This document shows positions 16,122 through 63,991 of a stretch of 64,000 bases of DNA, one piece after another. Under the pieces are notes generated by a model. The model was not told the origin of the DNA and did no database searches. It saw nothing but the letters and a program-made list of their open reading frames with translations. Source of the stretch: a virus. The stretch is taken from IMG/VR virus record IMGVR_UViG_3300025639_000003, one strand, 5' to 3'. Each line of letters begins with the position of its first letter. Position 1 is the first letter of the stretch. The position numbers and the translations under genes were made by a program.

Positions 16122-16267
16122 TACCTCCTTATGTCTCCTCGTTTACAATTTCTTCAAGCCTACTTTTAATATTTTCATATTTTTCTTGCCAAAATTCAGT
16201 TAATTTTTTTTGTTCTTCGTATTTTAATTCGTAATCTTCAAGTTCTATGAAAAACCTTTTAATTTCC

Positions 16268-16823: not shown

Positions 16824-16851
16824 ATTATACCGTATTTCCTGTAGAAGTCAA
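16824..16851 (-). promoter_or_regulatory. Sigma70-type promoter TTGACT-N16-TATAAT
   Basis: Intergenic hexamers. Confidence 0.6.
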
Positions 16852-16858
16852 GTGTTTT

Positions 16859-18571
16859 TTAACTTTTTTTAGTGTCATATGCAACTTGCGTTATGAACCA
16901 AGAAAACCAATTTTTATACGAAATTACTCTAGCAGATTCGTCGTCATTAATAACTTTACGCCATGTTCCTTCCAAATCGTTGATATCACCTTTAATTACA
17001 GCATTCTCGTAATCACATTTACCAAATACTACAACTGGACGCTCATATAGCATTGCTTCTTGCCCTGTTCCACTGTTTATACTATACACAGCAAGAGCAT
17101 CGGCAATCATAGAATTGATAGGATAGTCTAAATGATATTCCACATTAGTGTATGATTGTATAATTTCTACTAATGGTTCCATCGATTTTTTGTTAATAGG
17201 GTGACCTTTAAATACTACCTTTATCCCACTAATTTCTGCCCATTCGCACATTGCTTTAACCAGTTCAGGAACAGTTATGTTCGAATGATACTTGATGGTT
17301 TCGTCGTGGGGAAGTTGTAAAGGAACCAACACATAAGGTTCTTCATGAGACCAATCATTATTTCCCTGTAAATGTTTAAATTTAGTCCCGCCAGCTTTAA
17401 CATATTTTTGTAATTTTTCAAATTCCTTGTCATTCCCATATTCGATTTCTGGCGAATAATTATTTTTATATTCAGACCCACCAAGATATCCTATCTTATC
17501 TATAGTAAAAATCCACGGGAAAACGGTTTGCATATAATATCGGACATTATTGCCCCCACCCCACCACGACTTTTCAACATGAGGAGCGAATATTATTTGA
17601 TCGGTAAAATATTTACAAATCGTATCATTGAAATGCCATCTAGGTGCTTCAATAACTAAAGTATTCAATTCTTGTTCATTTTTCTTTTCTACAAAATTCG
17701 ACCAATGTTTGCGAATAGGCTCATTCACTGAATTTTCGATTGATATTTGTTTCTTGAATGGGAGGTCGAGACGTGGTTTTAATATTACATTAGTATAACC
17801 TTTTCCAATTCTATGATCTAGTTTATTCCAGCGTGCCTTTTCGGAAACGTATTTTTCATTATCATACTTTCGAGATCCTTTCCCTGTCCATATTGACGTT
17901 CCAGATTTAAACTCCCAATCCAGAAATGTCGAATCGAACTCATGTAATATGTCATCTGGGTCAACTTTAGTGGTGCTCATTAATTGGTCTATAATATGAC
18001 TTAATGCTATTTGATCATTAAACCAGCGTACAGGCAATCCTTCTATAGTTGCAGAAACCGCTTCAGCTACATTCAATGCATCAATATTATAATATACTGC
18101 TCCAGCTGCAACTTTCATCCCTTGCCGTTCCCAATTATTAGCAGCATCAACTTCACCTTTACGTGGAAAATACCCTACAGGGAGATCGGGAAATTCGAAG
18201 TCATTCATAATTAAACAATCAATATCAAGTATCATCACTTTATTTGCCGTTTTCAAAACATGCGGTGCTACAGCAAATCTAGTGCAGGCATAATATGCAC
18301 GTTCTTGTTCGGAATCAAAATCATTAAACGCAAAATCATGAAAAGAATACGTTACTCGCTTATGTGTCGTCGATGACAATATTGCGGCTAATGACAACAC
18401 ATCGTTTGTCGGGTTTACAATATGAATATGAACGTCAAACTTATGATCGGTTGCAGAATATATAAATGATGGAGCATGTTCTAAAAAATATTTTGAATCG
18501 CATGCAGCAAAAACTACAGGCGATGTCGGAAATTCTCCATATAAACTCATGTCAATTTTCTCACAATCCAT
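16859..18571 (-). CDS. Two-domain glycosyltransferase with a C-terminal KpsS/KpsC-like capsule-synthesis domain
   Basis: N-terminal ILDIDC (DxD); C-terminal VPLQLPHD, FKGHP, INSGTGQEAML. Confidence 0.75.
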   Translation of the reverse strand: MDCEKIDMSLYGEFPTSPVVFAACDSKYFLEHAPSFIYSATDHKFDVHIHIVNPTNDVLSLAAILSSTTHKRVTYSFHDFAFNDFDSEQERAYYACTRFAVAPHVLKTANKVMILDIDCLIMNDFEFPDLPVGYFPRKGEVDAANNWERQGMKVAAGAVYYNIDALNVAEAVSATIEGLPVRWFNDQIALSHIIDQLMSTTKVDPDDILHEFDSTFLDWEFKSGTSIWTGKGSRKYDNEKYVSEKARWNKLDHRIGKGYTNVILKPRLDLPFKKQISIENSVNEPIRKHWSNFVEKKNEQELNTLVIEAPRWHFNDTICKYFTDQIIFAPHVEKSWWGGGNNVRYYMQTVFPWIFTIDKIGYLGGSEYKNNYSPEIEYGNDKEFEKLQKYVKAGGTKFKHLQGNNDWSHEEPYVLVPLQLPHDETIKYHSNITVPELVKAMCEWAEISGIKVVFKGHPINKKSMEPLVEIIQSYTNVEYHLDYPINSMIADALAVYSINSGTGQEAMLYERPVVVFGKCDYENAVIKGDINDLEGTWRKVINDDESARVISYKNWFSWFITQVAYDTKKS

Positions 18572-18726
18572 TCACCATTTCCGCCATCGACCCATTCAAC
18601 TACATCCCCTGCTTTCCAATTTAAGCTATCCATGAGTTCGTCCGGAAACGTTATCATTAATTCCCCATCGTCGTCTAAGGTAATAGGGATTATGTGACTT
18701 TCTTCGTTCTTAATATGTATGCTCAT
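18547..18726 (-). CDS. AbrB/MazE-like small protein
   Basis: Manual ORF ...GELMITFPDELMDSLNWKAGDVVEW. Confidence 0.6.
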   Translation of the reverse strand: MSIHIKNEESHIIPITLDDDGELMITFPDELMDSLNWKAGDVVEWVDGGNGEWIVRKLT

Positions 18727-19590
18727 TTACTCACCTTTTGTTGTATCAAATCCATTACTTGCTGTATAGCCTTGTTGACTTTCTTTATTATACCCTGTCC
18801 AAGTGCTGGAGTCAAGTGAATAATAATCTTGCGGAGACATTCCCGAATCTAATGCCTCAAAATACATAGCATCAAACAATTCTTGAACGTCGGGTCGTCG
18901 ATGCTCACGAAATGTTCCATCAAACCAATGACTACGACCTTCCGATTTTAACCTTGGAATAAAATACTTACTATGCGGTTGGGTACTCATATCAGTATAA
19001 TGGAGAATCTTAATATCTTCAAGTTTATCATTTTCCCCATCAAAATTGTTCCATTGTCGGTTAAAGGTTTGTTGGAGGTGAGGGCGTTTTTTGAGTTCTT
19101 CGAATAATAGTTGATGAGCATAAGGTTCGGTTTTCATCACATCAACTTTAGGCAAAACAGTCTTTGCTCTTCTACAATCCCACTTAGCAACACAAGTTCT
19201 CCACCCACCTTTCATCATAATAATCTCTCCTCCAACATAAGCCTGCCTGAATGGTTCATCCCACAATTCAGCTAAGTCGCCAAGAATAATCATATCGGAA
19301 TCCATGTATATAGCTTGACCCTTAAAATCACATGCTTCAGGAATCGCCCAACGAAACCCAGAAAAAGGTGTCGCCCAAGTTTGGCTATTCCAACCACCCC
19401 AGATAGAATCCGGATCATTATTATGCTTCATCCATGTAATGTCGATAGGGAGACTGCTATTTTTACGAGCTGTGTATTCCAGCACCATTTGCGATTCAGC
19501 ATCTTCTCCGTTGGGGGCGACCCCAACATAAAGTTTGATTCTGGTCCCGTCCGTCATTGCGTTACAATCATTGTTGCCGATTGAAACCAA
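18727..19590 (-). CDS. GT-A glycosyltransferase (GT8-like)
   Basis: TPFSGFRW, AIYMDSDMIILGDLAELW, ILHYT. Confidence 0.85.
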   Translation of the reverse strand: MVSIGNNDCNAMTDGTRIKLYVGVAPNGEDAESQMVLEYTARKNSSLPIDITWMKHNNDPDSIWGGWNSQTWATPFSGFRWAIPEACDFKGQAIYMDSDMIILGDLAELWDEPFRQAYVGGEIIMMKGGWRTCVAKWDCRRAKTVLPKVDVMKTEPYAHQLLFEELKKRPHLQQTFNRQWNNFDGENDKLEDIKILHYTDMSTQPHSKYFIPRLKSEGRSHWFDGTFREHRRPDVQELFDAMYFEALDSGMSPQDYYSLDSSTWTGYNKESQQGYTASNGFDTTKGE

Positions 19591-20216
19591 CTTCTACTTA
19601 TCGGAATAACTTTACGATTATATTTATCGAGCCATTCGTTCAATGCTTTCCATTCATGATCTGGCCATTTAGGGTATAGTACACGTTTTGCATCATTTGG
19701 CGGAGTTGCTTCAGTAAACGCATGACGCCAACAACATAACTCATCAAACCTAATAATAGTTCCTTTTACGATTTGGGTATTGCATTCTTCTAAAATTGTA
19801 GTTGCGCTAGAATATATATCGGAATCAATATGGAGATATGAGATGTCTTCTTTATGATTATTTAAAAATTTAGGTAACGTCTCATTAAACCACCCCTTAT
19901 ATAATTCAACATTATCGGGGACTTCTGGCAATTCACCCTCACGATCAAATGCCTCTTTTTTTACCGTTTTATATCCCATATCCCAATCTTCAGGTAATCC
20001 AGTAAATGAATCGAACCCATGAAATTTTAAATGCGGGAGTAAATTAGCTACACAAGATATAGTCAACCCACTATGAACACCAAATTCAATATTAAGTCCC
20101 TTGAGTGGGAGATATGATGCTATCCAAGTCAACTCGCGAATCCGAACATCATCAGTAGTGGTATCAGTTGGTAGAAATTTAAATTTTTGTATATTTTGAA
20201 ATTCTGTAATCTTCAT
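19554..20216 (-). CDS. TylF/MycF-like SAM-dependent O-methyltransferase
   Basis: IEFGVHSG, GFDSFTGLPEDW, LHIDSDIYSS, FDE. Confidence 0.85.
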   Translation of the reverse strand: MKITEFQNIQKFKFLPTDTTTDDVRIRELTWIASYLPLKGLNIEFGVHSGLTISCVANLLPHLKFHGFDSFTGLPEDWDMGYKTVKKEAFDREGELPEVPDNVELYKGWFNETLPKFLNNHKEDISYLHIDSDIYSSATTILEECNTQIVKGTIIRFDELCCWRHAFTEATPPNDAKRVLYPKWPDHEWKALNEWLDKYNRKVIPISRSWFQSATMIVTQ

Positions 20217-20857: not shown

Positions 20858-21412
20858 TTATCCGAACCTGATTGTATATAGTCCGCATGTTTTTAAAAAA
20901 ATGATACCACCGTCATCCGAAATATCATGCTTATATATCACTCGCTCAATTCCGGCAGAATATATCTGCTTTGCACATTCAACGCATGGAGCATGAGTAC
21001 AATATAATACAGATCCTTCAACATTATTCCCCTTGCTTATAGCTATAGTCTCTGCATGAATATAAGTTGACGGATCAATATTTTTAAATGCGACGCTATC
21101 TGAATATTCAACCAATTTCTTTTTATTTTTTATTTTTGCTTCATCAGTGTCATTTACGCATACAGTATCATCGCAACAATTATCGAATCCTTGAGGAGTT
21201 TCGTTGTATCCTATAGAAATAATAGAATCATCTTTTACAATTATTGCTCCCATTTTTAAAAACCTACAAGAAGACAGTTGCGCAAACCGTTCCGCTGTAT
21301 CCATATACGCATCAGTCAATCTATCAAATCCGTAACCTATATTAGATTTAACGTTAGGATGGCTTATAAATGGGTAATTGGTATTAGGCATAGGCTTGAT
21401 TCCAGTCACCAC
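20858..21412 (-). CDS. cd: dCMP deaminase
   Basis: GYNETP, HAE, PCVEC zinc motifs. Confidence 0.9.
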   Translation of the reverse strand: MVTGIKPMPNTNYPFISHPNVKSNIGYGFDRLTDAYMDTAERFAQLSSCRFLKMGAIIVKDDSIISIGYNETPQGFDNCCDDTVCVNDTDEAKIKNKKKLVEYSDSVAFKNIDPSTYIHAETIAISKGNNVEGSVLYCTHAPCVECAKQIYSAGIERVIYKHDISDDGGIIFLKTCGLYTIRFG

Positions 21413-24357: not shown

Positions 24358-25041
24358 CTATTTTTCCGTGAATGTCTTGGATAAAGGAAATATCTGAGCA
24401 ATCACTTCTGCACAAGCAACAGCTATATCAATATGCTCCTTTTGAGTCCCATGACCTGCTCTAAGGTCTATATAATGTATCCAAGAACGTAGGGTTCCAT
24501 TCATATATAATCTAGACTTAGTTAATCCTTCTGGCAAAATTGCCCGTGCTTGTTCTTTCGCTATACCCACATCAATTGCCCAATTATATGAATCTTTCAC
24601 TATATCTAAAATTTCTTTTTGTTTTATTTCCCAAATACGTTTAATTTCGTCATCCTTAGTTTCAATCGAGTTTTGTCTATTGCTCACATCTTGTAGCCTT
24701 GCTTCACGCAATTCAAAATCCAAATCTTTAGTTGGGTCGGCATATCGCTGGGAGAACTCTTGAAACGAAAATGATCTATGCCTCAAAATTTGCCTCGCAA
24801 TATCCCGTGTGGTTTCAATTTCAATGCAAGCTGAAGCCATTTCTAATGGCGACCAATGTTTGTGCTTGATTAAATAATTTATCAATTTTTCCGACGTTTC
24901 TTTGTTCAGCTGATTGCTTGGGTTTGATACACGTGCGCAGAATGCAACGAGGTCTTGAACATTATCAAGTCCCTGATCAATCATACTTTCCGAAGGCATG
25001 CTGTATGAAATTAAATTCACTTCCATTATATTTTTCTCCAT
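24358..25041 (-). CDS. thyX: Flavin-dependent thymidylate synthase
   Basis: HWSPLE, RHRSFSFQEFSQRY, GTLRSWIHY. Confidence 0.97.
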   Translation of the reverse strand: MEKNIMEVNLISYSMPSESMIDQGLDNVQDLVAFCARVSNPSNQLNKETSEKLINYLIKHKHWSPLEMASACIEIETTRDIARQILRHRSFSFQEFSQRYADPTKDLDFELREARLQDVSNRQNSIETKDDEIKRIWEIKQKEILDIVKDSYNWAIDVGIAKEQARAILPEGLTKSRLYMNGTLRSWIHYIDLRAGHGTQKEHIDIAVACAEVIAQIFPLSKTFTEK

Positions 25042-47556: not shown

Positions 47557-48270
47557 TCAATGGTCTCTACGTTTGTTGAACACACATATAAATAACAAAT
47601 CTTCATCGTCGCTAGTGTTGAATACTTTATGGTGCTCTCCGTCAGGAATAGTGAACGTTTTGCCTTTTTCAATAGGAAACGGTTTTCCTGATATTTCTAT
47701 AACACCAATCCCACTCAAGAACGTATACACTTCCTCCATTCCTTGATGACAATGCCCCTTTGTTTCTTGCCTTGGATGTAATGTGGTGGTAGAAACGGTT
47801 AAAGCATTCAACTCAGTATTGTCAATAATAGTATAAACTGCATCATCCTTTACAGTTGCGCCAGTTAGTGGCGGAGTTCCTTGATTTTCTACAACTTTCT
47901 TTTTAAGTCCATTAGAACTATAATTATGTTTTCGGGCATTATAATAAGTTTCTATGTTAAGGTTATCTCCAGTAAAATGTTTTCTTTTATAGTCTTCCCC
48001 TATAAATCTGATATCCGGAGTGACAAGTTTCAATAATTCTATCAATTCACTTTCATCATTATACGGAATGATCCTATCAACATATTTCACAGCTTCAAGT
48101 TGAACATATCTCTCAACTATACTTTGGACAGGATATCTACCATACTTAAACGGATTTACATTTAATCCACATATAAGATAATCACAATTTTCTTTACACT
48201 CTTTTAGCATCGCGATGTGCCCTGTGTGTAATAAGTCAAATGGACTACAAGTAAACCCTATCTTCATCAT
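47557..48270 (-). CDS. Sugar/glycerol-phosphate cytidylyltransferase fused to a cupin domain
   Basis: FDLLHTGH, GEDY, YSSNGLK; cupin HCH..MEEVY...HHKV. Confidence 0.85.
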   Translation of the reverse strand: MMKIGFTCSPFDLLHTGHIAMLKECKENCDYLICGLNVNPFKYGRYPVQSIVERYVQLEAVKYVDRIIPYNDESELIELLKLVTPDIRFIGEDYKRKHFTGDNLNIETYYNARKHNYSSNGLKKKVVENQGTPPLTGATVKDDAVYTIIDNTELNALTVSTTTLHPRQETKGHCHQGMEEVYTFLSGIGVIEISGKPFPIEKGKTFTIPDGEHHKVFNTSDDEDLLFICVFNKRRDH

Positions 48271-49631: not shown

Positions 49632-49907
49632 CTACTTTCCCGTAATTGCTTCATAAAGTTCTTCAAGGTCAGAATTTTCAGCTTTAACTTCTGCCATACT
49701 TTGGTTATGATATATTTTTGCCATCTTAGTAATATACTTTTTAGGAACTTCAGTTCTACTTGAAGTTTCCTCTACAATATCCTTCATTAATTCTCGCTCG
49801 GAATCAATACGTGACATTGACACTGATAGTTCGTTTATTGCATCAAAAATTGCCTTTCTGGTTTTTGGATCACTTGGTATAATAATATTAGTCATTTGAA
49901 CCCTCAT
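49632..49907 (-). CDS. dsbA: DsbA-like double-stranded DNA-binding protein
   Basis: Helical pattern ...KIYHNQ...E..LEELYE resembling T4 DsbA. Confidence 0.65.
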   Translation of the reverse strand: MRVQMTNIIIPSDPKTRKAIFDAINELSVSMSRIDSERELMKDIVEETSSRTEVPKKYITKMAKIYHNQSMAEVKAENSDLEELYEAITGK

Positions 49908-50559
49908 TATAATTGCTACCTGCTTCGTTTGCTACCCAATATTGTACAGACGTGCCTTTAAAGTGAGAAATGCCTTGTTTAGACATCGTAACATCATAGT
50001 CTTGAGTCATGAATTTGAAGTTCTCGACCTTGAATACAAATTCAAATTCCGCATCAGTGGTAGAATTTAACTCATGAGAAAATTCATTACATGTAGGATT
50101 TTTAGTATCAGTTGCAACCAAATGAATCAACCCATTACCACGAACAACAATTTCAGGCAACCCCAATTGATTTGCCCCATCAATTACCTTTTTCAAATCC
50201 TCATTACGAAGACTAAATTTAACTTCCTGAGAAGGCAAGTCTAAATTTTGCTTAGGAGGTTGAGTTACCATAGAAGGATCAGCATAAGTATATCTTGATT
50301 TATTAGTTCCCTCACTAATAATGACCGAAGATTCGCCAAATGAATAGTCAGCATCATTAAATAGGCTAGAAAGACCTAAGAATTGATTTAAATCGTATAT
50401 AGCAAAATCTTTACTGAATGTTTCGTCTATATTTGCTTGAGCAAGAATATTCTTTTGCTCAGACACAGTCCGTAAAGTATTGCCGACTTTAACTGCAATG
50501 CTCGGATTAATTGATGCAAAATTCTTAAATACTTCAAACGTTTTCTCAGTAATTTTCAT
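49888..50559 (-). CDS. gp45: Sliding clamp
   Basis: KNFASINPSI, FAIYDLNQFL, FKVENFK, YWVANE. Confidence 0.95.
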   Translation of the reverse strand: MKITEKTFEVFKNFASINPSIAVKVGNTLRTVSEQKNILAQANIDETFSKDFAIYDLNQFLGLSSLFNDADYSFGESSVIISEGTNKSRYTYADPSMVTQPPKQNLDLPSQEVKFSLRNEDLKKVIDGANQLGLPEIVVRGNGLIHLVATDTKNPTCNEFSHELNSTTDAEFEFVFKVENFKFMTQDYDVTMSKQGISHFKGTSVQYWVANEAGSNYNEGSND

Positions 50560-53308: not shown

Positions 53309-55468
53309 TCAAGCAATTTCTTTAATAAATTCATTCAACATAGTGCGGGATACCAATTTTGATTTATTTGCTTTCTTAAAGGCACTGGTAATTTGCCCCT
53401 TTTTCGCATCGGTAGCAACTTCAAATGAACCGTTAGCAGTCTTCAACCCAGCACCACCTTTGATAGCAAAGAACTTAGTATAACCTTGACCTGGAATAGT
53501 CGTATAATTTTCTTTTTTTAGTTCTTTCAGCATATCAAATATAGCTAACGATCCAACCCCACACTTATCGAAAACCCAACTAACTTGACTTCGACCTTGG
53601 GGCATGATTCTAAACCCAATAACATTTGACTTAGTTCTATCAGAATACATTTCCAATAAAGTTTTAGTGAACTTTGCATTATTCACCCTATATCGCTTTT
53701 TTGTTACAGGATCAGTAATACTAATTACAGTATCACTTTGAACATAAGATATTGCAACTCGGCTAATAGACATCGGCATTGGTCTATCGAACCGATCTTT
53801 ATACGCAAAGTGTGACATGTGCGAATCGCCATCAGTCAAGAAAATCGTATTAACTATGTCAACACGGTTTTCTTCTTGGAACATATCATATATTACTGGA
53901 GCCATTGTTAAGGTGGTATCAAGTGGGGTTCCGCCTAACGCATATTCGCTTCGAACTTGACCGATATGATTAGCTAAAGTCAACAAAATTTTAGACATTC
54001 TAGTAATTTGTCGACCATTCATTTTATTATTGAAAAACTCAAGTAGCTGAAACGATGACTCCGGAACCAAGTTAAGTTGCTCAGTAGAACTTAAAATCTC
54101 GTCATAATTTTCAGTTTTATGATATCGATTAGTAAAAGCATATACACGGAACGGAATTTGTACTTGGCGGCAGAAGTGAACTAAATTTAAAGTTTGTTCA
54201 ACAGTATTAAATAAGTCGTGAGCCATCGAACCCGACCAGTCAAGATACATAATCATTCCGTGATTTTTTCCTTCCGGAATATTAGTAACTTTCTTAAAAA
54301 TATCATCACTATATCTATATGAATTTAGCAGCACTGGGTCAATAACTCCAGTCTTAGAAGTAGTTGCCCGAGAGTAAGCAGAGGCAGACTTTTTCATTTC
54401 AAATTCTTTAACTAAATATTTGATGGTCTTTTTATTATTCTTCATGAACGAATTAAGAAGATCATCTCCATGCTCTTCTGCTCGAGATAACATTCCAAAA
54501 ACGGGACGATCGTGGTTGCGATATGTTTCGTTCATATTAGAAAAATCTTCAAGAATCTCTTTATATCCTATTGTGAGACCCTTAACCGTAGTTCGATTGT
54601 AGTATTTGTTAGTCAGATTATAAACATCACCTTGATGAGTATCGCCCAATTCAGACTCAATCCGATTGCGAAGTGCTTCATCGGTTTTTGATCCAATAGT
54701 ATCTTCAACAGATTCGTCATTAAACTCATCAGTCACCGAATCACCATATCCTTCAACTTCAACTTCTTCAGTTTCATCCTCAAACATACCGCTATCATCA
54801 AATTCGCTCATTTCATCAAATTCGAATTTTTCAGGCTCAGGCTTGGTGTCATCATCAAATTCCATTGACATCAATTCTTGAACTTCGTCTTCTTTGTTGG
54901 TAGCGTCTTCAGTAGCTTTTGTATACATTCGGTCAGCGATATCGACCACTTGGTCCCAAGTAGTTGCGGCTTCGATTTCTTCAACCCAAACCATTTCTTC
55001 AGGTTCAATACGGACACCAGACGAACGCCCGAGTTTAAAATAAGTATTGATTCTATCAATCAAATTATATTGATTGATTCCTTCGACATCATCGCCAAAG
55101 AATCCATCTTTAAGCATTTTATTATAGGATTTTACAAATTCGCGACGCAATCCAGGATACTTGCGTTGAATAAGTTTTTCAATGCGAGCATCTTCAATAA
55201 CATTTAAATATGATTTGTATGCAGGAGAATTATCAGAAACAGCATCACGCCATCCTTCTTCAGGAGTGTATAATGCGTGCCCAACTTCATGCCCGACAAG
55301 GTGATCATATGTAAATCCCTCCATATCATCCCAAATAGGAAGAGTCAGAACACGCTTTTTAACGTCGAACGATGCAGTTTTAACCTTATCATGGGTTACA
55401 GTTAAATTCTCTGTAGCTAAGAGTTTAGCTAGAATATCTTTAGAACTTATCATATAATTACCTCTCAA
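53309..55468 (-). CDS. CobT-like metallopeptidase + VWA domain protein
   Basis: HEVGH, EDARIE, MIDAS DWSGS, GGTPL, LTDG. Confidence 0.85.
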   Translation of the reverse strand: MRGNYMISSKDILAKLLATENLTVTHDKVKTASFDVKKRVLTLPIWDDMEGFTYDHLVGHEVGHALYTPEEGWRDAVSDNSPAYKSYLNVIEDARIEKLIQRKYPGLRREFVKSYNKMLKDGFFGDDVEGINQYNLIDRINTYFKLGRSSGVRIEPEEMVWVEEIEAATTWDQVVDIADRMYTKATEDATNKEDEVQELMSMEFDDDTKPEPEKFEFDEMSEFDDSGMFEDETEEVEVEGYGDSVTDEFNDESVEDTIGSKTDEALRNRIESELGDTHQGDVYNLTNKYYNRTTVKGLTIGYKEILEDFSNMNETYRNHDRPVFGMLSRAEEHGDDLLNSFMKNNKKTIKYLVKEFEMKKSASAYSRATTSKTGVIDPVLLNSYRYSDDIFKKVTNIPEGKNHGMIMYLDWSGSMAHDLFNTVEQTLNLVHFCRQVQIPFRVYAFTNRYHKTENYDEILSSTEQLNLVPESSFQLLEFFNNKMNGRQITRMSKILLTLANHIGQVRSEYALGGTPLDTTLTMAPVIYDMFQEENRVDIVNTIFLTDGDSHMSHFAYKDRFDRPMPMSISRVAISYVQSDTVISITDPVTKKRYRVNNAKFTKTLLEMYSDRTKSNVIGFRIMPQGRSQVSWVFDKCGVGSLAIFDMLKELKKENYTTIPGQGYTKFFAIKGGAGLKTANGSFEVATDAKKGQITSAFKKANKSKLVSRTMLNEFIKEIA

Positions 55469-55487
55469 ATTACCAACTTCAAGTTAT

Positions 55488-55516
55488 ATTATACTCTTAT
55501 TGTTTTAAAAAGTAAA
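55488..55516 (-). promoter_or_regulatory. Sigma70-type early promoter TTTACT-N17-TATAAT
   Basis: Exact hexamers and spacing. Confidence 0.8.
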
Positions 55517-55524
55517 GGATTTTT

Positions 55525-56085
55525 TTAACTTTTTTTCAAAAAATCGTTGGTAATCCATTCCAAAACAGTATTAGTATCCTCTTCCGTTTCGTGGTTAAAC
55601 GTTTTAATGATGCCTAACTCCTCCCCGAAGAGCGTCATTTTAGGTCCAAATTCATCAACTACATTTTTACATTTAGTTTTAGTCGTCTGTATAAATTTAT
55701 CGCTTTGATTGGACCCACGTTCTTTATATCGTTTCTCCCGAGTTTTATCAGAAACAGTTAAATGTATTATCGTCAAATCATCGCCACATGTTCTAAAAAA
55801 TTCCCTACTATTAAGACGGTCTCCTTCGCCTATAATTATCTCATCAGGTTTAGTTTTGATCCATTCTATTGCTTTAGGTGCAACAGCCATACTCAAACGA
55901 TCAGTTCCTGCATATACTCCTTCTCCATCATACTTACCCAAAATTCGAATATTACCTGACCTTTCTGTATCTAGTAAATCGGCAACCCTTTCCTTTTCCC
56001 AAGAGTTACTAATATTGGTTCTTATAGCATTCATAAGAGTAGTCTTGCCAGTTCCAGGCATCCCGATCATATAATATATCTTCAT
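55525..56085 (-). CDS. P-loop nucleotide kinase of a DNA-modification cluster
   Basis: GMPGTGKT, GTDRLS, EGDRL, RGSNQ. Confidence 0.75.
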   Translation of the reverse strand: MKIYYMIGMPGTGKTTLMNAIRTNISNSWEKERVADLLDTERSGNIRILGKYDGEGVYAGTDRLSMAVAPKAIEWIKTKPDEIIIGEGDRLNSREFFRTCGDDLTIIHLTVSDKTREKRYKERGSNQSDKFIQTTKTKCKNVVDEFGPKMTLFGEELGIIKTFNHETEEDTNTVLEWITNDFLKKS

Positions 56086-57500
56086 GTAAAAAACCCCTCT
56101 AGACTAGATTTCACCTCATATGCCTCAGGGTGATATTTTTCAACAACATTCTTACCCATTTTTGATTCTAAATAATCATACCATTCATTATCGCCCCACA
56201 TTTTAGGGGAAACTCCATTCCAAAAAGGTTTCCATAATGGGTGGGTTTTATTTGTTCTTCTAGAATCAACGTAGTTCTTTCTAGTATTTTCATATTCCCA
56301 TGAACCCAATTTATCCATATCTTCGCGAAAATAGAATACTAATGACATTCTCAAAAAATCATCGTCTCCAGAATCTGGTGCATCTATAGGCGTATTAGCA
56401 TGAATTATACGCATATTATCAATTAATAAAAGATCTCCAGGACGGCAGTTAATTGCCGCACGAACTTCAGGGCAAACTAGATAACCTCCTTTCCAATTCT
56501 TTCCATCTTTAGTTATTACAGTAAGATTTGAGAATCCTTCATTCAATGAACCCGCATCTCTATGGCATGCCATACGAGCATTTCTATCTGCAGTCGTCGT
56601 GTTCACAGTTATAGTTGTAAAAGTTGTATCCTCTCCAATTAAAAATTTATTATCCAACCTTTTAGCATATTCATATTGCCTATCCCAACGAATCGGCATT
56701 AATTTTTTAAATTCTGACTCAAGTTTCCTTGCAAATGGGTAGCATTTTTTAAATGCTTCCCTATTATGATCAACATAAGCAGTGGCTCTGCCATACGGTA
56801 TTCTAGGATATCTTCCATAAAATCCAGCAATACCTGACCATATTGGGGCAGCATATGATGTATCGGAAATATAATTTTCCGAAATACGTTTAGCACATTT
56901 ACTCGCTTTATCGATATCCATGATCTTCAATTCTTCAATGAGAGTTGAAAAAAATGAAGAATAATTTCCATAGGTTTCTTCTACTTTAGTTCTTAACCAA
57001 ACACCCCCACGATTAACGTGCGTTGAACACTCATGTTTTTTCTTAATGTCTTCAAATCTATCAGAACCATCAATTGGTTTTGGTTGACCTGAAATAAAAT
57101 AATCTAATATTTCTATCTGATATGCCGTAACCCAATCTCTATTTCCAGACTTTTCTGATCTTGGACCCGCAGCCATACCTCTATTATTCGACTCAACTGC
57201 AGCATCAAATAATCCTTCAAATGCCCCAACTTGCTCATCATGGGTAAACACGTTCTTACGAAATTTGAATGCTACATCATCCTCAGTAAGATCATCAGAA
57301 CCTGTGATAGCTTTTTTTGGTAAATAAAAATCAGCATCACTATCAACAACTATATCATAAAAATCAGAATCTACATATTTCCCAAGAAGATCGTTTCCAT
57401 TTGAAATGAACTTCGAGACATAAACATCTTGCCCCTCATCGCCCTTATATTTTTGCCAAACGTGATTTCCAATTTTAACTTCTTCCATAATTTGCCTCAA
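56082..57500 (-). CDS. TET/JBP-family 2OG-Fe(II) dioxygenase
   Basis: FTTITVN, HRD, GFSNL, GGYLVCPE, RPGDLLL, IIHAN, RMSLVFYFRE. Confidence 0.85.
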   Translation of the reverse strand: MRQIMEEVKIGNHVWQKYKGDEGQDVYVSKFISNGNDLLGKYVDSDFYDIVVDSDADFYLPKKAITGSDDLTEDDVAFKFRKNVFTHDEQVGAFEGLFDAAVESNNRGMAAGPRSEKSGNRDWVTAYQIEILDYFISGQPKPIDGSDRFEDIKKKHECSTHVNRGGVWLRTKVEETYGNYSSFFSTLIEELKIMDIDKASKCAKRISENYISDTSYAAPIWSGIAGFYGRYPRIPYGRATAYVDHNREAFKKCYPFARKLESEFKKLMPIRWDRQYEYAKRLDNKFLIGEDTTFTTITVNTTTADRNARMACHRDAGSLNEGFSNLTVITKDGKNWKGGYLVCPEVRAAINCRPGDLLLIDNMRIIHANTPIDAPDSGDDDFLRMSLVFYFREDMDKLGSWEYENTRKNYVDSRRTNKTHPLWKPFWNGVSPKMWGDNEWYDYLESKMGKNVVEKYHPEAYEVKSSLEGFFT

Positions 57501-57520
57501 AGAAATATATTTAATATGTT

Positions 57521-57549
57521 AGTATAACGTACATTATCCCGAAAGTCAA
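57521..57549 (-). promoter_or_regulatory. Sigma70-type promoter TTGACT-N17-TATACT for the TET gene
   Basis: -35 overlaps the upstream stop codon. Confidence 0.65.
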
Positions 57550-58697
57550 GTAAAAAACTTATCAATCGAATTAATTCCATAATTATTACTGAAACAATCC
57601 CATTCATTATCCATCAAAATAACCTCTCCGGTTTCACGATAATGATTCTGTTTAATGGGTTGAATGCCCACATCCCATGGGTTGTCTTCTAATCTCAAAT
57701 ACTTAGGTAAACAATCTTTACGCATTTCCCAGAATATATCGAATTTTTTGCCCCATTCTAATTCGGCATATTTTATACGATTATACATCATATCCATATA
57801 AACATTAGGATAACGTCTTTTTGGTCTATACCACGACTTATAACAACATAGAGTTGATTCTAGAGTGAAATATGAAACATCCGGATGATCTATACGTTCA
57901 CGTGCGTCTTCAAGTAACTTCTGTCCTTCCATAGTCAACCATTCAACCATATCTGTATCGTATGTCACCTTTTCTTTCCACCAATCCAAATCGTCGCGAC
58001 CCAATACTTTACATATACCGTTTCGATGGGACTTTGAACCGCTCATATCTTCTAGAAAAAGATTATTGCAATCTAAATTTAAACCTTGTATTCTCAGATA
58101 TTCAAGATAAGAAAAGGTTGATAATCTACCGAACGACATAAAATTATTGCGAACTAAGTCCCAAGTCATCTCGAAATTTTTTCCTACATCATCCGTATTA
58201 CATACAGAATTAAACATAGCTGTTTGACTTCCAAATTTAGCTACATTCTCTTTATATGATTGTACGCACTGAGGAAACCCTGTTTTTCCTACTTTAAAAT
58301 ATTTGCGATCTAGGTCCCAACCACTCCCCACTTTATACTTATGTTGAACTCCGTTCCACCACTCGTTAAGGTCTTCAATTTCACATTCTTCAAGCGAAGG
58401 ATACCTTTCAAATATTTGCCAAGTGGTCACAATATTTTGGGAACACCCATTAATAAATGCAATCCATAAACGCTGCTCTTGGTCAAGATTAAATTTCCGA
58501 GTTAACCAAGGCATAGCAAAATACACGCCACCAGGATGAGATGCATATTTTAAATGAAACTCATAGAACCTTAGAAATACTTCTCTTCGATATTGCGGCA
58601 ATCTAAAATCAAAGCCACGTTGTAAATCTTGAACTTCGGAAACGCCTTTTAATTCAGACCCTCTACATAAATTTTTCAAGCGTTGCCCTCTTATCAT
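57546..58697 (-). CDS. Amino acid:DNA transferase / alpha-glutamyl-putrescinyl thymine pyrophosphorylase-like protein
   Basis: FGRLSTFSYLEYL, SGSKSHRNG, FTLESTLCCYK, RRYPNVY; gene context; clade uncertain. Confidence 0.65.
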   Translation of the reverse strand: MIRGQRLKNLCRGSELKGVSEVQDLQRGFDFRLPQYRREVFLRFYEFHLKYASHPGGVYFAMPWLTRKFNLDQEQRLWIAFINGCSQNIVTTWQIFERYPSLEECEIEDLNEWWNGVQHKYKVGSGWDLDRKYFKVGKTGFPQCVQSYKENVAKFGSQTAMFNSVCNTDDVGKNFEMTWDLVRNNFMSFGRLSTFSYLEYLRIQGLNLDCNNLFLEDMSGSKSHRNGICKVLGRDDLDWWKEKVTYDTDMVEWLTMEGQKLLEDARERIDHPDVSYFTLESTLCCYKSWYRPKRRYPNVYMDMMYNRIKYAELEWGKKFDIFWEMRKDCLPKYLRLEDNPWDVGIQPIKQNHYRETGEVILMDNEWDCFSNNYGINSIDKFFT

Positions 58698-59436
58698 CTA
58701 AAAAATAAAATCCATCATACGAACTACCCAACTTAAAATATTCCGTTTCAGTTTCATGTTTTCCCACAATGGCAGCAAAATATACTGCGTTTCTGTGCCT
58801 AAAGGCAGCTTTTATGATTGAATACCCGAAGTTCATATACAGCCAGTCGGAGTAACCTTTAATATAATCATCAGTATTATTTACTTCACAATCAAAAATT
58901 TTACCATATTTCTTACCGTGAATCTTCATAGAGTACGAAATAGAAGTATCAGTCCACACCACCAATTTAGGTTTAGTTGAAAACGCTCCATCAAATATAG
59001 TTTTCCATTCACGTGTAGTCCGTATTATACTTGAATTGGGGAAATCCATAAATTTTAAATCTGAATGGGTATTATATAAATCGTTGGCATTAGAACAAAT
59101 TACCGTTACATTCGATGGGAAATTGCTAGTAGATAAATGGTCTACACAGCTGCGATCAAGCTCATTAACTATATGGGTCTTCACTTTAAAGATTTTTTGA
59201 ATTATTAGAGTTTGTATACCAATACCAGACATAAACTCTAATACAGAATATTCTCTATCTTCATCAATAATATCCTTTAACAGCCATTTAGTTGCATATG
59301 CTTTACATGCAACTAAATCTGGGCGAGATGTGGCGTAATGAATATATGACCGATTGTATAAATTTTTATCTTCTTCATCTTTTAATTTGATATTAAAATT
59401 CAAATCCCACTCATTACATATTCTAGCAATCCTCAT
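58663..59436 (-). CDS. SAM-dependent methyltransferase-like protein
   Basis: Motif I VLEFMSGIG, acidic NELD, FMDFP. Confidence 0.55.
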   Translation of the reverse strand: MRIARICNEWDLNFNIKLKDEEDKNLYNRSYIHYATSRPDLVACKAYATKWLLKDIIDEDREYSVLEFMSGIGIQTLIIQKIFKVKTHIVNELDRSCVDHLSTSNFPSNVTVICSNANDLYNTHSDLKFMDFPNSSIIRTTREWKTIFDGAFSTKPKLVVWTDTSISYSMKIHGKKYGKIFDCEVNNTDDYIKGYSDWLYMNFGYSIIKAAFRHRNAVYFAAIVGKHETETEYFKLGSSYDGFYFLDDKRATLEKFM

Positions 59437-59444
59437 TTAATACC

Positions 59445-61166
59445 TCACGCAGCTATTCTCGAAAAACTTTTGATCTTTTCAAATTTAATCGTACTCCTGA
59501 ATCTGTCTATCAATTGATCACCTTTATGACTAATTACAAATATATTAGTATTATGTAGTTCATTAAACAACCCCATAAGGATATCACTTCCATTAGCGTC
59601 AACTGAGCCATCAAATACTTCATCAAGTATAAGTAGATTTGTATTAACGCTATTCTTCAACTTAGCCACTGATCTCCAAGTCAACATAAGACTAATATCA
59701 ATCCTCGCCTTTTCTCCTTCACTAAATGATGCATACGAAAATGCATCGCGATGCCTAGACTTGATGACTTCGTTGAACCCCTCATCCAGTTCAAAATTAA
59801 CAAAAAAATCCAATGTTGAAAGATACTTATTCACAAGTTTATTGATAATTGGTATATACTGCCGAATAATTATAGCTTTTATTCCACCATCTTTCAATAT
59901 TTGATTCGCATACTTAAACACTTCAGCTTCATCACTCAATTGTTTAGATTCTTCTTTATACGTTTCAGTTTGTTTCTTAAATTTTTCTATCTTATCATGA
60001 GGATTTTCTTCACCATTAGTATTCTTACTTTCTGTGAGAAGGTGGGCGATTTTTTGATTAGCACGATTTATATTATCTCCACATAATTTTTTCTCAAATT
60101 TGATATTAATTAGATCACTTTGGTGTTCTGCTATTTTGGTTTGAATAATGTGAATTTTATCTATTGCGCATATTAATTTTTCTTGTTCAATTTTTAATAG
60201 GGAAACTGCAGCATCAGTCTCATCAACAATATTTGAATTCTTTTTTATATGCTCAGTTTTATTTTCCCATTCAATAATTTGCTCGCATGTGGGGCAATGA
60301 TCATTCGATTGGTAGAACCTTAATCTTTTCTCGGCAGATGAAACTTTTTCTTGAAGTGTCATTAGTAAACTAGAAACTCTATCCGATTTTATTGAAATCT
60401 TATCTGAATTTGATATCGCCACAACCAAATTACTAATAGTGTCAGCAATTTCTTGTTCTCTAATAGTTGAATTGGAAACATCATTATCCCAATCAGAAAT
60501 TTCTTCCTCAAGTTCCTTTATTTGCTTATCCGTTTGCTCTTGCAGTTTCTTCAAATAAGTTTCTTGTACTTCAATCTTATCCTGTATCAATTCAATTTTA
60601 TTCTCTGCAGATAATCTATCGGATTTATTTTTTGAAATTCTATCCTTGAGCAATTGGTTCATGCCGCTAAATATTTGAATATCCAATAAGTCTTCAATAA
60701 CAGTCCTGCGGTCATTATTACTCAACTGCATAAATGGCGTAAAGGTTGCTGAACCCAATATAACTACTTGGGTGAATGACTTATAATTTAATTTTAATAT
60801 AGTATCTTCTAAAATAACCTGATAATCTTTCGACGCTCCTGGCTGATCTACCATTTTTCCATTTTTTATTATTTCAAAAATTGCTGGCGATATCCCACGA
60901 CGAACTTTATATAAATTTGTCCCAACTTTAAATTCAATTTCAACAAGGCAATCTCGCTTATTCACGCTATTTGATAATTGACCCTTTTTAATATTTCTAA
61001 ACGGCTTATTGAATAGAACAAACGTTAATGCGTCTAACATAGTAGACTTTCCTGCACCATTTTCGCCAACAACCACCGTGCTTGGGGATCTATCAAATTG
61101 AATTTCAGTAAACACGTTACCTGTAGAAAGGAAATTCTTCCACCTAATCTTCTCAAAATACAACAT
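59445..61166 (-). CDS. gp46: Recombination endonuclease subunit (Rad50/SbcC-like)
   Basis: GENGAGKS, CPTC hook, FSEGEKAR, ILDE, ISH. Confidence 0.97.
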   Translation of the reverse strand: MLYFEKIRWKNFLSTGNVFTEIQFDRSPSTVVVGENGAGKSTMLDALTFVLFNKPFRNIKKGQLSNSVNKRDCLVEIEFKVGTNLYKVRRGISPAIFEIIKNGKMVDQPGASKDYQVILEDTILKLNYKSFTQVVILGSATFTPFMQLSNNDRRTVIEDLLDIQIFSGMNQLLKDRISKNKSDRLSAENKIELIQDKIEVQETYLKKLQEQTDKQIKELEEEISDWDNDVSNSTIREQEIADTISNLVVAISNSDKISIKSDRVSSLLMTLQEKVSSAEKRLRFYQSNDHCPTCEQIIEWENKTEHIKKNSNIVDETDAAVSLLKIEQEKLICAIDKIHIIQTKIAEHQSDLINIKFEKKLCGDNINRANQKIAHLLTESKNTNGEENPHDKIEKFKKQTETYKEESKQLSDEAEVFKYANQILKDGGIKAIIIRQYIPIINKLVNKYLSTLDFFVNFELDEGFNEVIKSRHRDAFSYASFSEGEKARIDISLMLTWRSVAKLKNSVNTNLLILDEVFDGSVDANGSDILMGLFNELHNTNIFVISHKGDQLIDRFRSTIKFEKIKSFSRIAA

Positions 61167-61170
61167 TATA

Positions 61171-61815
61171 TTATTCCGCCACTTTCAGATAAGCATTACA
61201 TGCTATTACAGTTCTATTTAAAGATGACCGAATTGCGCCAGAACTTGTGCTGTGCTGCAGCCATCCAGGAAAAATTACCCATCCCCCAGTTCCGACCGAA
61301 TAAGATTTGGTCATAGAAGATTGATGAATTGACGTATTTGGATTATATACCGTAGTCCCATCAAATCCAGGATTGTCTAGGTAATATATACCAACAACCT
61401 GAGCAGGAAAATGATTATGTATAGGGTTATGTGAATGCGTATCTACGCTATTTTCCATATCCTTACTATAAAACCAAGCAGTAGTATAAGTCAATTCATA
61501 CATTTCTGGAGGTCCATACATTTCCCTAGCTAGAGATAAATAGTTCATTACGTGTTCGCTAAACGAATTGGCTAAATTTTCCCAATTAACTGACCAATGA
61601 TCTTGCCAGTTTTGAAATAATATTGGGTGTGATTGATATGCAGGAACACGCAAGTGGCGACCATCAGTAATGATATTATCAATATCATCCATCATTTCTT
61701 GAACATTTATATTCAATTTGGGGGTTTCATTAACCAATATTTTTGTCGGGAATATATCGTGAACTTCCATAATCACTCCATTTATGTAAGCATAAAAGAT
61801 TCGCCACAACCGCAA
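61171..61815 (-). CDS. Putative 2OG-Fe(II) oxygenase (TIGR02466-like)
   Basis: HNH...GIYYL, FPGWLQH, R..IACN. Confidence 0.7.
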   Translation of the reverse strand: MRLWRIFYAYINGVIMEVHDIFPTKILVNETPKLNINVQEMMDDIDNIITDGRHLRVPAYQSHPILFQNWQDHWSVNWENLANSFSEHVMNYLSLAREMYGPPEMYELTYTTAWFYSKDMENSVDTHSHNPIHNHFPAQVVGIYYLDNPGFDGTTVYNPNTSIHQSSMTKSYSVGTGGWVIFPGWLQHSTSSGAIRSSLNRTVIACNAYLKVAE

Positions 61816-62132
61816 GACCCCATCGAAGGGGAAGATATTTTAAATGTGGGAGAAAAGGGACCTCCGGTATAGTCAACGGTTGCATCTTTCATATAATTTA
61901 AAGTAAACTCATCCATAATAAATATAGTGCGGCAATCTTCTTGTTCAGCAACTTCACCGCCCATTGTTCCTGGTTTGCATGCTCGCCATATTATAACATC
62001 AATTTTATTGTCGATCTTATCAACAGTTTCCCATTTTCCAATAAGACCAGAACATCCTCCGCCATTTAAAGAATATCGTATAATACCACCAATTTCTTTA
62101 AATTGTGCCTTTGCAGATTCTGTAACTATCAT
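61782..62132 (-). CDS. iscA: IscA/HesB-type Fe-S cluster carrier
   Basis: GGGCSG; C-terminal CGCGESF. Confidence 0.85.
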   Translation of the reverse strand: MIVTESAKAQFKEIGGIIRYSLNGGGCSGLIGKWETVDKIDNKIDVIIWRACKPGTMGGEVAEQEDCRTIFIMDEFTLNYMKDATVDYTGGPFSPTFKISSPSMGSCGCGESFMLT

Positions 62133-63193
62133 AAATTTAATGATATTGCTTCATTATATAACGATCTCAACAAAAAGTCAAGTTTTTTCTTCGGTGCAGC
62201 CTTATCTAAAGTTTCTACATATTTGCTCATAATAGATACAGTATCCTCAGCTTCATTTATTATTTCCTCTTCGCTTGTTAAGTTTAAATTTAAATTGTCG
62301 TCAACTACCTGAATCTGTAGCGGATTCGATTTATACAATTTATCCATAAATAAGTCAAACCAATAAGGATTATCGCAATTTATCTTTATAACTTTCACAT
62401 AAGTATTAGCATATACGCTAACATCAATATCATCAACAAAATCACTTAATTTCTTGTTCGAGTCATCATAAAATATTTTATGAAAAATTGAGTATGGATT
62501 TCGAATAAATTCAAGTTCACGATTATCAGTATCATATATATGGAATCCTTTCGCATCTTGATAATCTATCCAAGTCATTTCATATGGACACCCCAAATAT
62601 TGAACGTTCCCAATTTTATTCTTATGGTGGAAATGCCCAGAATATACTGTTTCAAATTTATTAAATAATTTGACGTCCATCCCATGCTCATTTTTATTTC
62701 CTCTATCCATCAATGCGCCAGATACCTCTAAGTGCGACATCATAACCTGAGCCGAAGTTTGATCCATAGCAGTTATAGATTCATCATAGTTTTGAGCATT
62801 AATCCAAGGCATGAGTAGAATAGGTTGACCATCAAACTCAATTGTAGCTGGCTTTGAATAATATTTCACGTGAGTTCCGTCAAATAATTCTTTCATACTA
62901 TTGACTTCATTAGTATTTTTATATGGAACGTCGTGATTGCCAATTAATACGTGAATTGATATATTAAGTTCGTCGCATTTACTTACGAACATCTCCTTCA
63001 TTCGTTTAAGTGTTACATAAGATATATATTTCCTACGATCGACAATATCCCCCAAATGGATAATAGTATCAATCCTTTCTGATATGAGTGTAGGGAAGAA
63101 AATTTCATCATAAAACCTCTCAAAATAAGTTAAAAAATCGGTGTTATCGTTTCTAGCACCAAAGTGCGTATCAGTAATTAAGGCTATTTTCAT
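62129..63193 (-). CDS. gp47: Recombination endonuclease subunit (Mre11/SbcD-like)
   Basis: DTHFG, GDIVD, GNHD, GHFH. Confidence 0.97.
   Translation of the reverse strand: MKIALITDTHFGARNDNTDFLTYFERFYDEIFFPTLISERIDTIIHLGDIVDRRKYISYVTLKRMKEMFVSKCDELNISIHVLIGNHDVPYKNTNEVNSMKELFDGTHVKYYSKPATIEFDGQPILLMPWINAQNYDESITAMDQTSAQVMMSHLEVSGALMDRGNKNEHGMDVKLFNKFETVYSGHFHHKNKIGNVQYLGCPYEMTWIDYQDAKGFHIYDTDNRELEFIRNPYSIFHKIFYDDSNKKLSDFVDDIDVSVYANTYVKVIKINCDNPYWFDLFMDKLYKSNPLQIQVVDDNLNLNLTSEEEIINEAEDTVSIMSKYVETLDKAAPKKKLDFLLRSLYNEAISLNL
62153..62181 (-). promoter_or_regulatory. Sigma70-type promoter TTGACT-N17-TATAAT inside the 3' end of gene 47
   Basis: Exact hexamers upstream of iscA. Confidence 0.65.
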
Positions 63194-63196
63194 AAT

Positions 63197-63736
63197 TTAT
63201 GAATTATGTACAGTTTTACGGTTCTTCTTATTCCGTTCGGCAGTTTCATAATTTTCAATAAACTCAGTCATATATTCTTGCGATCCGGAACTTTGCTTTA
63301 TATCGTCCCCATAATTTACCGACTTATCATGGGTTTGCCGATCAGAAGTCGCCCCTGAAATATTTGCGTTTTCAGTTGCCTTATATTTTGTGTATAGATA
63401 TTTCTTTTCTTTTTGTATTCTGCGCAAAAATGCATAATATATGATTTGGGTGAAATATGCAAAAGGGTTGGTTGATTTTTCAGGATTAAAATTATCAATA
63501 TATTGGAGACAATTTTCTATACCATCTCCCACCATTTCATCACGAAAACTATAATTAGCAAAGTTTGGTCTGTATGATAAGTTATTTGCAATCTTCATGA
63601 TACATTCAGCCACATATGATGGAATTTGGGGTCGGGCATTTCCGCTATTTGTCGCTTCAGACACGTTCCCTTTATATTCGATCATTGCTGCTAAAAAGTC
63701 TTTATTATTGACATAATGTGTAGTTTTCTTAGCCAT
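63197..63736 (-). CDS. gp55: Late transcription sigma factor
   Basis: HYVNNKDF, DEMVGDGIENCL, NPFAYFTQI.YYAFLRRI. Confidence 0.97.
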   Translation of the reverse strand: MAKKTTHYVNNKDFLAAMIEYKGNVSEATNSGNARPQIPSYVAECIMKIANNLSYRPNFANYSFRDEMVGDGIENCLQYIDNFNPEKSTNPFAYFTQIIYYAFLRRIQKEKKYLYTKYKATENANISGATSDRQTHDKSVNYGDDIKQSSGSQEYMTEFIENYETAERNKKNRKTVHNS

Positions 63737-63748
63737 TTAATTTTTCCC

Positions 63749-63991
63749 TCAATGATATATTATTTCATTATTTGATTCTATAAATTCATCCATTAATTCG
63801 TCAATTAATTCTTCTTTCCCTCTCAAGGTTCTATCTGGAGATAATATTCTATCTATCGTTTCCGCATAATACTCTGCCATATACTTTGTTGCGTCCGACA
63901 TAGCGATTATATGGGATTCGCGAATATACATAATATTATTCTCTTCAGTCATAGGCATCCACTGATAAGCAATCATGCTCATTTTTTCCAT
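63749..63991 (-). CDS. Conserved hypothetical upstream of gene 55
   Basis: QWMP...HII. Confidence 0.55.
   Translation of the reverse strand: MEKMSMIAYQWMPMTEENNIMYIRESHIIAMSDATKYMAEYYAETIDRILSPDRTLRGKEELIDELMDEFIESNNEIIYH

Follow-up and report, generated by a model that had tools for sequence, protein, structure and literature searches.

How does a phage that encodes a kinase and an amino-acid:DNA transferase obtain the hydroxymethyl group that such enzymes need, and what does a methyltransferase-fold protein contribute when it is encoded beside them? These questions are raised by a stretch of viral DNA of 64,000 nucleotides (IMG/VR record IMGVR_UViG_3300025639_000003), which is referred to as a whole as the window. 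Positions 55,525 to 59,436 of the window hold four contiguous genes for a TET/JBP-family dioxygenase (TET), a P-loop kinase, an ADDT-type transferase and a protein with the fold of a class-I S-adenosylmethionine (SAM) methyltransferase (MTase). A preliminary description, made from the sequence without database searches, proposed that they form a post-replicative hypermodification pathway with a possibly new base as its product. Our computational analysis indicates that the four genes form a conserved cassette, which probably hypermodifies thymine after or alongside replication. The core of this pathway, namely TET, kinase and transferase, is already published; the novelty lies in the SAM-enzyme partner, in a T4-like setting without ParB and in the clamp-type tails of the enzymes.

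Results

A conserved four-gene cassette next to gp46

The cassette and the gene upstream of it are as follows.

59445..61166, minus strand: gp46, SbcC-like recombination nuclease subunit (Pfam AAA_23/SMC_N), directly upstream of the cassette and co-directional with it
58663..59436, minus strand: orphan class-I SAM methyltransferase-fold protein, 257 aa, the fourth cassette member (AlphaFold2 fold, conserved linkage)
57546..58697, minus strand: ADDT/AADT (aGPT-Pplase2-type) amino-acid:DNA transferase, 383 aa (Pfam ADDT, 3.8e-18)
56082..57488, minus strand: TET/JBP-family 5-methylpyrimidine dioxygenase, 468 aa (Pfam Tet_JBP, 1.4e-15)
55525..56085, minus strand: P-loop kinase (Ploopntkinase3), putative 5-hydroxymethyluracil (5hmU) DNA kinase, 186 aa (Pfam, 1e-14)

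The four open reading frames (ORFs) were confirmed where the preliminary description had placed them, all on the minus strand and directly downstream of gp46, in the order MTase-ADDT-TET-kinase. Their spacing is tight: counted from gp46, there is a gap of 8 nt, an overlap of 35 nt between the MTase-fold and ADDT genes, a gap of 57 nt and an overlap of 4 nt between the TET stop and the kinase start. The TET ORF opens at a TTG at 57500 (472 aa), and an ATG at 57488 gives 468 aa; the latter is the start called on identical metagenome contigs and is probably the real one. On the far side, the cassette is flanked by a CobT-like gene. A scan of 55000-63800 for promoters and terminators returned sites no more numerous than those in shuffled sequences.

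Linkage was surveyed in all 37 IMG/VR loci that carry the MTase-fold gene. The ADDT gene stood immediately beside it in 36 of the 37, that is, wherever the contig extends downstream, and most of the loci also had TET and kinase genes, many of the exceptions being places where the contig ends. The identities of these relatives span 40 to 75%, and their usual order is TET-MTase-ADDT-kinase, which differs from that in the window, so the linkage survives both divergence and rearrangement. We also located distant relatives of the MTase-fold protein, at 24-33% identity, by a degenerate-pattern search from a seven-sequence subset of the alignment, and the neighbors were again ADDT-like, kinase and TET genes. 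That the four genes form one conserved cassette is supported by these comparisons of gene order.

Dioxygenase, transferase and kinase

The reading of the third gene as a TET/JBP dioxygenase with an intact HxD..H..R signature held up well. The protein matched Tet_JBP (PF12851) with 57.4 bits against a cutoff of 34.9, and the Fe(II) triad (H309-x-D311 and H363) and the 2-oxoglutarate (2OG)-binding R380 were invariant across 17 homologues. Its AlphaFold2 (AF2) model was of moderate quality (pLDDT 75.6), and the top 26 Foldseek matches in the Protein Data Bank (PDB) were CcTet, NgTET1, CMD1 and TET2, with AlkB-type oxygenases ranking below the TET structures. As modeled, the fold is of the TET type rather than a generic double-stranded β-helix. 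A complex prediction for the TET and MTase-fold pair gave a score of 0.00, which counts neither for nor against binding.

The transferase passed the profile check as well, with an ADDT match of 66.5 bits against a cutoff of 26.2 and a weak additional match to aGPT-Pplase3, which places 57546-58697 inside the ADDT family. Its identity to the aGPT-Pplase2 proteins of ViI-like Kutterviruses is 26-28%, and that to homologues in mycobacteriophage clusters is 38%. In an alignment with Det7 (ViI-type), Cr30 and Hangman, E280, C284 and K287 were invariant. A conserved Cys and a neighboring Glu are essential in M6 gp51 and ViI gp247 (Lee et al. 2021, PMC8989533), and because E280 and C284 match these residues, the assignment as an amino-acid:DNA transferase is supported. 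No decarboxylase, radical-SAM or lyase gene occurs near the cassette that would hint at Gly or Ser as the nucleophile.

The kinase scored 54.9 bits for Ploopntkinase3, whose cutoff is 27, and its Walker A motif is GMPGTGKT, in line with the P-loop kinase first proposed. Hangman gp4, which is encoded next to an ADDT, belongs to the same family. In some relatives of the cassette, an extra ORF of 335-346 aa lies between the ADDT and kinase genes (L008:1977-3017, L040:3834-4874 and L043:2148-3155). It has no Pfam match, two of its copies are 41% identical, and it shows a marginal collinear similarity to ADDT that includes an LC..RY stretch; it may be a second aGPT-Pplase-like paralogue, judging from the sequence.

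Source of the hydroxymethyl group

Two genes of thymidylate metabolism bear on the origin of 5hmU.

24358..25041, minus strand: ThyX, flavin-dependent thymidylate synthase (Pfam Thy1, 4.2e-42)
20858-21412: dCMP deaminase (Pfam dCMP_cyt_deam_1, 1e-18)

Judged by their families, ThyX and the deaminase would supply ordinary dTTP. A Pfam search of the 50 window minus-strand ORFs of at least 170 aa, extended by PHROGs for ten ORFs that Pfam did not match, found neither Thymidylat_synt nor DNA_methylase (PF00145). A relative with the same cassette, G001 (173 kb, 100% complete according to CheckV), has ThyX and likewise lacks both families, and both were also absent from five partial relatives. The early observation of an ordinary ThyX and no hydroxymethylase thus extends beyond the window, and with this enzyme absent from the window, G001 and the five partial relatives, the most economical way to obtain 5hmU is for TET to oxidize thymine on the DNA. 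One phage TET has been found to prefer T (Burke et al. 2021, PMC8256090), and phage 5mYOX enzymes oxidize T to 5hmU in vivo and in vitro (O'Toole et al. 2026, PMC13229309). The proposal that TET-made 5hmU feeds the kinase and the transferase is therefore supported as the best reading, but it is one that had already been published (PMC8989533, PMC13229309).

An orphan methyltransferase-fold family

The fourth protein had been described as MTase-like, and this was borne out at the level of structure: by sequence it stays below threshold, but AF2 and Foldseek assign it the class-I SAM-MTase fold. Weak RrnaAD matches were found in 11 of 32 homologues. The AF2 model has a pLDDT of 90.2 and matches many SAM-MTases in the PDB with a Foldseek probability of 1.0. 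The VIA Z score is 14.7 over 215 residues for Trm1, 13-14 for RsmD, TrmM and TYW2, and 12.9-13.1 for HemK2/N6AMT1, and the neighbors of the protein in the ESM Atlas are MTases. In a PDB sequence search, a narrow profile of the family gave only noise; when broadened with remote relatives, the profile matched KsgA at 2e-5 over motifs I-III.

Residues E67, G71, G73, D131, P133, S135, S136 and the stretch W161-TDTS165 are invariant. Motif I reads E67-x3-G71-x-G73, the acidic motif II residues E92 and D94 are nearly invariant, and the motif IV region is D131-F-P133-N-S135-S136. The conservation of SAM motifs I-III across at least 278 clusters argues for a working SAM enzyme. Cys is missing from both the motif IV (D-F-P-N) and the motif VI (T-D-T-S) position, and PF00145 does not match the protein. 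It therefore does not belong to the usual, covalently acting type of C5-pyrimidine methylase. A D-x-P motif is typical of amino-directed MTases, and the best structural matches (Trm1, TrmM, RsmD and HemK2) are amino-directed MTases of nucleic acids. Together, the motif and the modeled neighbors suggest that the protein is an amino-directed transferase.

Homologues numbered 41 in a word search, and a profile search with E values up to 0.001 yielded 278 representative clusters. There was no homologue in 50,697 GenBank phage records. The family thus appears to be a new, orphan viral one, which Pfam-based surveys would list as hypothetical since it has no match above threshold. Even in relatives of 24-33% identity, ADDT and kinase genes remain the neighbors of this gene, which suggests that a SAM enzyme tailors the product and that the base is an uncatalogued one.

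Clamp-type C-terminal tails

We compared the C-terminal ends of every minus-strand ORF of 80 aa or longer (87 in total), with the phage polymerase as the reference.

40830..41951, minus strand: family-B DNA polymerase, C-terminal half (Pfam DNA_pol_B; reference tail ..RSTLESFFS)
49888..50559, minus strand: gp45 sliding clamp, proposed docking platform (Pfam gp45-slide_C, 4.7e-13)

Only three of the 87 ended in L[DE]xF[FMLI]: the polymerase (TLESFFS), TET (..SSLEGFFT) and the MTase-fold protein (..ATLEKFM). The ADDT tail, ..NSIDKFFT, contains IDKFF. The kinase has no clamp-type tail, either in the window or in the relatives. In the relatives, the tails are kept as TLDxFF in the MTase-fold protein, TLExFF or SLESFF in TET, and G[IL]ExFME or TLENF in ADDT, and the polymerase of G001 has a matching tail (ATLEDFFG). 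The tails are of low confidence in the AF2 models of TET and the MTase-fold protein and are presumably flexible or disordered. The window polymerase is split into two ORFs (40830-41951 and 42266-43765, minus strand) with a 96-aa ORF between them (41941-42231), whereas in G001 it is a single frame of 830 aa.

In T4, similar acidic-hydrophobic C-termini attach gp43, gp33 and gp55 to gp45, so that these clamp ligands share such ends with the polymerase (PMC2988020), and the T4 alpha-glucosyltransferase binds and co-purifies with gp45 (PMC13216743), which is a precedent for a DNA-modifying enzyme of a T4-type phage associated with the sliding clamp. Because the tails of TET, ADDT and the MTase-fold protein are acidic-hydrophobic like that of the phage's own polymerase, the three enzymes may well be carried on gp45, a prediction that we hold tentatively. 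The window would differ from the T4 alpha-glucosyltransferase in that three enzymes of one pathway have the polymerase-like tail, their binding being predicted from sequence. Such tails on three enzymes of a putative pathway appear to be new.

No ParB gene beside the cassette

ParB-dependent 5mYOX enzymes need an adjacent activator (O'Toole et al., PNAS 2026, PMC13229309). No ParB gene adjoins the cassette, whose neighbors are gp46 and the CobT-like gene, and a query with the Hangman ParB found nothing in the window. ParB_N was absent from the complete genome of G001 too, but the genuine Hangman ParB escapes Pfam as well, and ParB_N negatives are weak for this reason. A T4-like setting without an adjacent ParB is apparently new.

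A ParB/Srx-like ORF with an IIDGHHR motif and no Pfam match lies at 6338-7045 on the minus strand, 49 kb from TET, and its ESM Atlas feature score against viral ParB_N/ParBc_2 clusters was 0.93. Because G001 lacks it and phage records hardly contain it, we rejected this ORF in the role of an obligatory activator and regard an obligatory partnership as unlikely.

Comparison with known systems

Metavirome contigs with TET_JBP, kinase and aGPT-Pplase genes and without a hydroxymethylase were reported by Lee et al. 2021 (NAR 2021/22, PMC8989533, section 21; Fig. 2 sequences 22-25). These clusters (TET_JBP, 5-HMUDK and aGPT-Pplase2) have the same three core activities as the window and follow the same logic, as no dUMP hydroxymethylase or gene forming 5-methylcytosine (5mC) is nearby and TET was proposed to make 5hmU in situ. 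They are only catalogued there, and the text that describes them makes no mention of an MTase-fold partner, a T4-like setting or clamp-type tails. The window kinase also differs from theirs, since it belongs to Ploopntkinase3 and not to the ViI-type HMUD2.

The closest cultured parallel for the transferase and the kinase is found in mycobacteriophages. The window ADDT (38% identity) and kinase both have their best cultured relatives in Hangman-type mycobacteriophage clusters, and in Hangman and clade C1 a Tet_JBP dioxygenase is likewise linked to a P-loop kinase and an amino-acid:DNA transferase (AADT). According to O'Toole et al. (PMC13229309), the ParB-dependent subclass is "consistently linked" to GATases, P-loop kinases and AADTs, and O-methyltransferases are listed only as co-occurring Pfam domains. 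The Hangman genome starts (L047 1-3465) with a ParB-like gene, a Tet_JBP "oxidoreductase", ADDT and Ploopntkinase3, followed by the terminase. Its dioxygenase is 324 aa long compared with 468 aa in the window, with 26% identity over 108 residues, and ParB is adjacent there, whereas the window has no adjacent ParB and an MTase-fold gene instead. In database records, the Hangman cassette genes are labeled hypothetical protein or adenylate kinase, and the same kinase is called "terminase small subunit" in some related records.

Phages M6, ViI, PaMx11 and PhiW-14 share with the window the kinase-then-transferase chemistry on 5hmU, the essential Cys and Glu, and further tailoring. Their 5hmU is made before replication by a dUMP hydroxymethylase, which is the main difference. 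The tailoring in M6/ViI-type phages is carried out by a PLP (pyridoxal phosphate) decarboxylase, a radical-SAM isomerase, a flavin lyase and an acetyltransferase (PMC8989533), and no SAM methyltransferase is among the enzymes characterized by Lee et al. (PMC8989533, Table 1).

TET itself is the modular part of the cassette, as cultured T4-like phages combine its homologues with different downstream enzymes. C48C1 (64% identity), DLP_6 (48%) and Cr30 (40%) encode TET proteins of the long subfamily to which the window protein belongs, and these share its C-terminal tail; in DLP_6 the gene lies near gp46/gp47. The partners are a TAGT glycosyltransferase and a sugar nucleotidyltransferase/APH in DLP_6, UDP-galactopyranose mutase in C48C1, and ADDT and a TAGT-like protein in Cr30; none of the three has the MTase-fold gene. 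These neighbors suggest 5hmU glycosylation routes. The TET homologues are labeled "SNF2 DNA repair protein" in DLP_6 and Cr30 (L002 and L003) and "hypothetical protein" in C48C1 (L001).

Genomic setting

The window has a GC content of about 35%, and its T4-like phage genes, summarized below, run along the minus strand.

Replication and recombination genes: gp47, gp46, gp45, gp44, UvsX/RecA, gp41-type helicase, primase and RNase H
Further genes: ribonucleotide reductase, ThyX, dCMP deaminase, CobS, PhoH and Hsp20
62129-63193, in the minus-strand run: gp47

Window gp46 is only 46% identical to cyanophage gp46, and contigs from marine sediment and seawater metagenomes carry stretches identical to the window, which points to an uncultured marine T4-like myovirus. 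A full-length gene for Fae, the formaldehyde-activating enzyme, is present at 13573-14172 on the minus strand (Pfam, 2.2e-64), with no match among the 50,697 phage records. The family of the window kinase is also present in four Methylophilales phages, and this shared family and Fae hint at a methylotroph host.

Other genes of the window include an inorganic pyrophosphatase (1.5e-54) adjoining an NT5C 5'-nucleotidase (8007-8519 and 7085-7675, minus strand); an NT5C gene is also found beside a distant MTase-fold relative on contig L049. A sugar-related cluster at 14893-20216 (minus strand) encodes a GT1 glycosyltransferase, a capsule-synthesis-like protein and a TylF/Methyltransf_24 O-methyltransferase, and a cytidylyltransferase-cupin protein is encoded at 47557-48270 (minus strand).

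Discussion

We consider it probable that the cassette hypermodifies thymine after or alongside replication. In the pathway that we propose, dCMP deaminase and ThyX would provide ordinary dTTP and thymine would be incorporated as usual. TET, with Fe(II) and 2OG, would then hydroxylate the methyl group of thymine in the DNA to give 5hmU, which the kinase would convert to 5-phosphoryloxymethyluracil. In the next step, Cys284 of ADDT would attack C6 with the assistance of Glu280, the phosphate would be expelled, and an amino acid or amine would join the exocyclic methylene. The last step would be the SAM-dependent tailoring of the appended group by the MTase-fold protein, most likely an N-methylation. 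If the tails act as suggested, gp45 would deliver TET, ADDT and the MTase-fold protein behind the fork.

The steps of this scheme deserve different degrees of confidence. The exact tailoring chemistry is less secure than the pathway as a whole, and that the modified base is possibly new rests mainly on the MTase-fold partner. We are more doubtful about the complete picture of a "toolbelt", in which TET, the transferase and the new SAM-dependent family would ride on gp45 without ParB and would produce an uncatalogued methylated or SAM-derived amino-acid-thymine.

Several points weigh against the thymine pathway. The chemistry is deduced from families and gene context. The MTase-fold protein scores below every curated Pfam MTase threshold (the best is RrnaAD with 19.2 bits against 24), and the methyl acceptor that we assign to it, the appended group, is putative. 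The kinase matches only Ploopntkinase3 and falls outside HMUD2, the family of the 5-hmdU kinase of ViI-type phages such as Det7, and BLAST found no similarity between it and the kinases of Salmonella or Pseudomonas phages; because it is outside the characterized family, its substrate is assigned from the gene context. The preference of TET for T rather than 5mC is likewise deduced only from the missing C5-MTase and from the downstream enzymes. Some clade C1 5mYOX enzymes without ParB were inactive in E. coli assays (PMC13229309). The absences of enzyme families cover 64 kb of the phage's own genome, for which the complete relative serves as a proxy, and clamp tethering is predicted from the tails.

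Among the alternatives, the one that survives best, although we find it unlikely, keeps the cassette but assigns the MTase-fold protein a role other than tailoring. One possibility is that it assists the dioxygenase or the transferase as a non-catalytic or regulatory partner, in the manner of ParB; another is that it is an independent anti-restriction DNA methylase of N6-adenine or N4-cytosine. Such a partner would fill the place of the adjacent activator on which ParB-dependent 5mYOX enzymes rely (PMC13229309) and which is not found beside this cassette, and its gene directly follows TET in most relatives; for a methylase, the adenine-specific DNA MTase M.BseCI is among the structural neighbors. 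However, a non-catalytic partner agrees poorly with SAM motifs I-III being conserved over at least 278 clusters. The gene also keeps its place next to ADDT in every arrangement, including that of the window, where TET is elsewhere in the cassette, and more distant relatives retain ADDT-like or kinase neighbors.

An improbable alternative is that the cassette works on cytosine: 5mC would come from the MTase-fold protein or a host enzyme, TET would oxidize it to 5-hydroxymethylcytosine (5hmC), and the kinase and transferase would decorate the latter. The preliminary description had left room for this conversion, and it has some precedent, as clade A/B phage TETs oxidize 5mC and some metavirome contigs join a C5-methyltransferase, TET and a P-loop kinase (PMC8256090); the constancy of the MTase-fold gene in the cassette would fit as well. 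We disfavor it, since PF00145 is missing from the window, G001 and the five partial relatives, the D-F-P-N and T-D-T-S sites of the MTase-fold protein lack Cys, its best structural matches are amino-directed, and the characterized ADDT enzymes act on substrates derived from 5-hmU (PMC8989533). That the four proteins have unlinked roles, as a nucleotide kinase, a glycosylase-like repair protein, an RNA or protein oxygenase and an RNA methylase, with no hypermodification pathway at all, is very improbable: the kinase family is indeed named only "nucleotide kinase" and the ADDT fold is glycosylase-like, but the genes stay linked across relatives in two different orders, the ADDT-kinase pair is beside a Tet_JBP protein in Hangman too, and the catalytic Cys and Glu of ADDT are conserved.

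Hypermodified DNA helps phages to evade restriction and CRISPR, and the pathways behind it provide enzymes for DNA labeling and sequencing chemistry. If the fourth gene of the thymine cassette encodes a true tailoring enzyme, it would represent a new hypermodification family of at least 278 clusters and probably lead to a new thymine derivative, which would be carried by widespread T4-like phages of marine and other environments. Why phages choose post-replicative over pre-replicative routes was left open by O'Toole et al. (PMC13229309). If the tails do attach to gp45, the clamp would organize three enzymes of a single pathway, and this would give such phages a mechanism for keeping pace with replication without a ParB activator.

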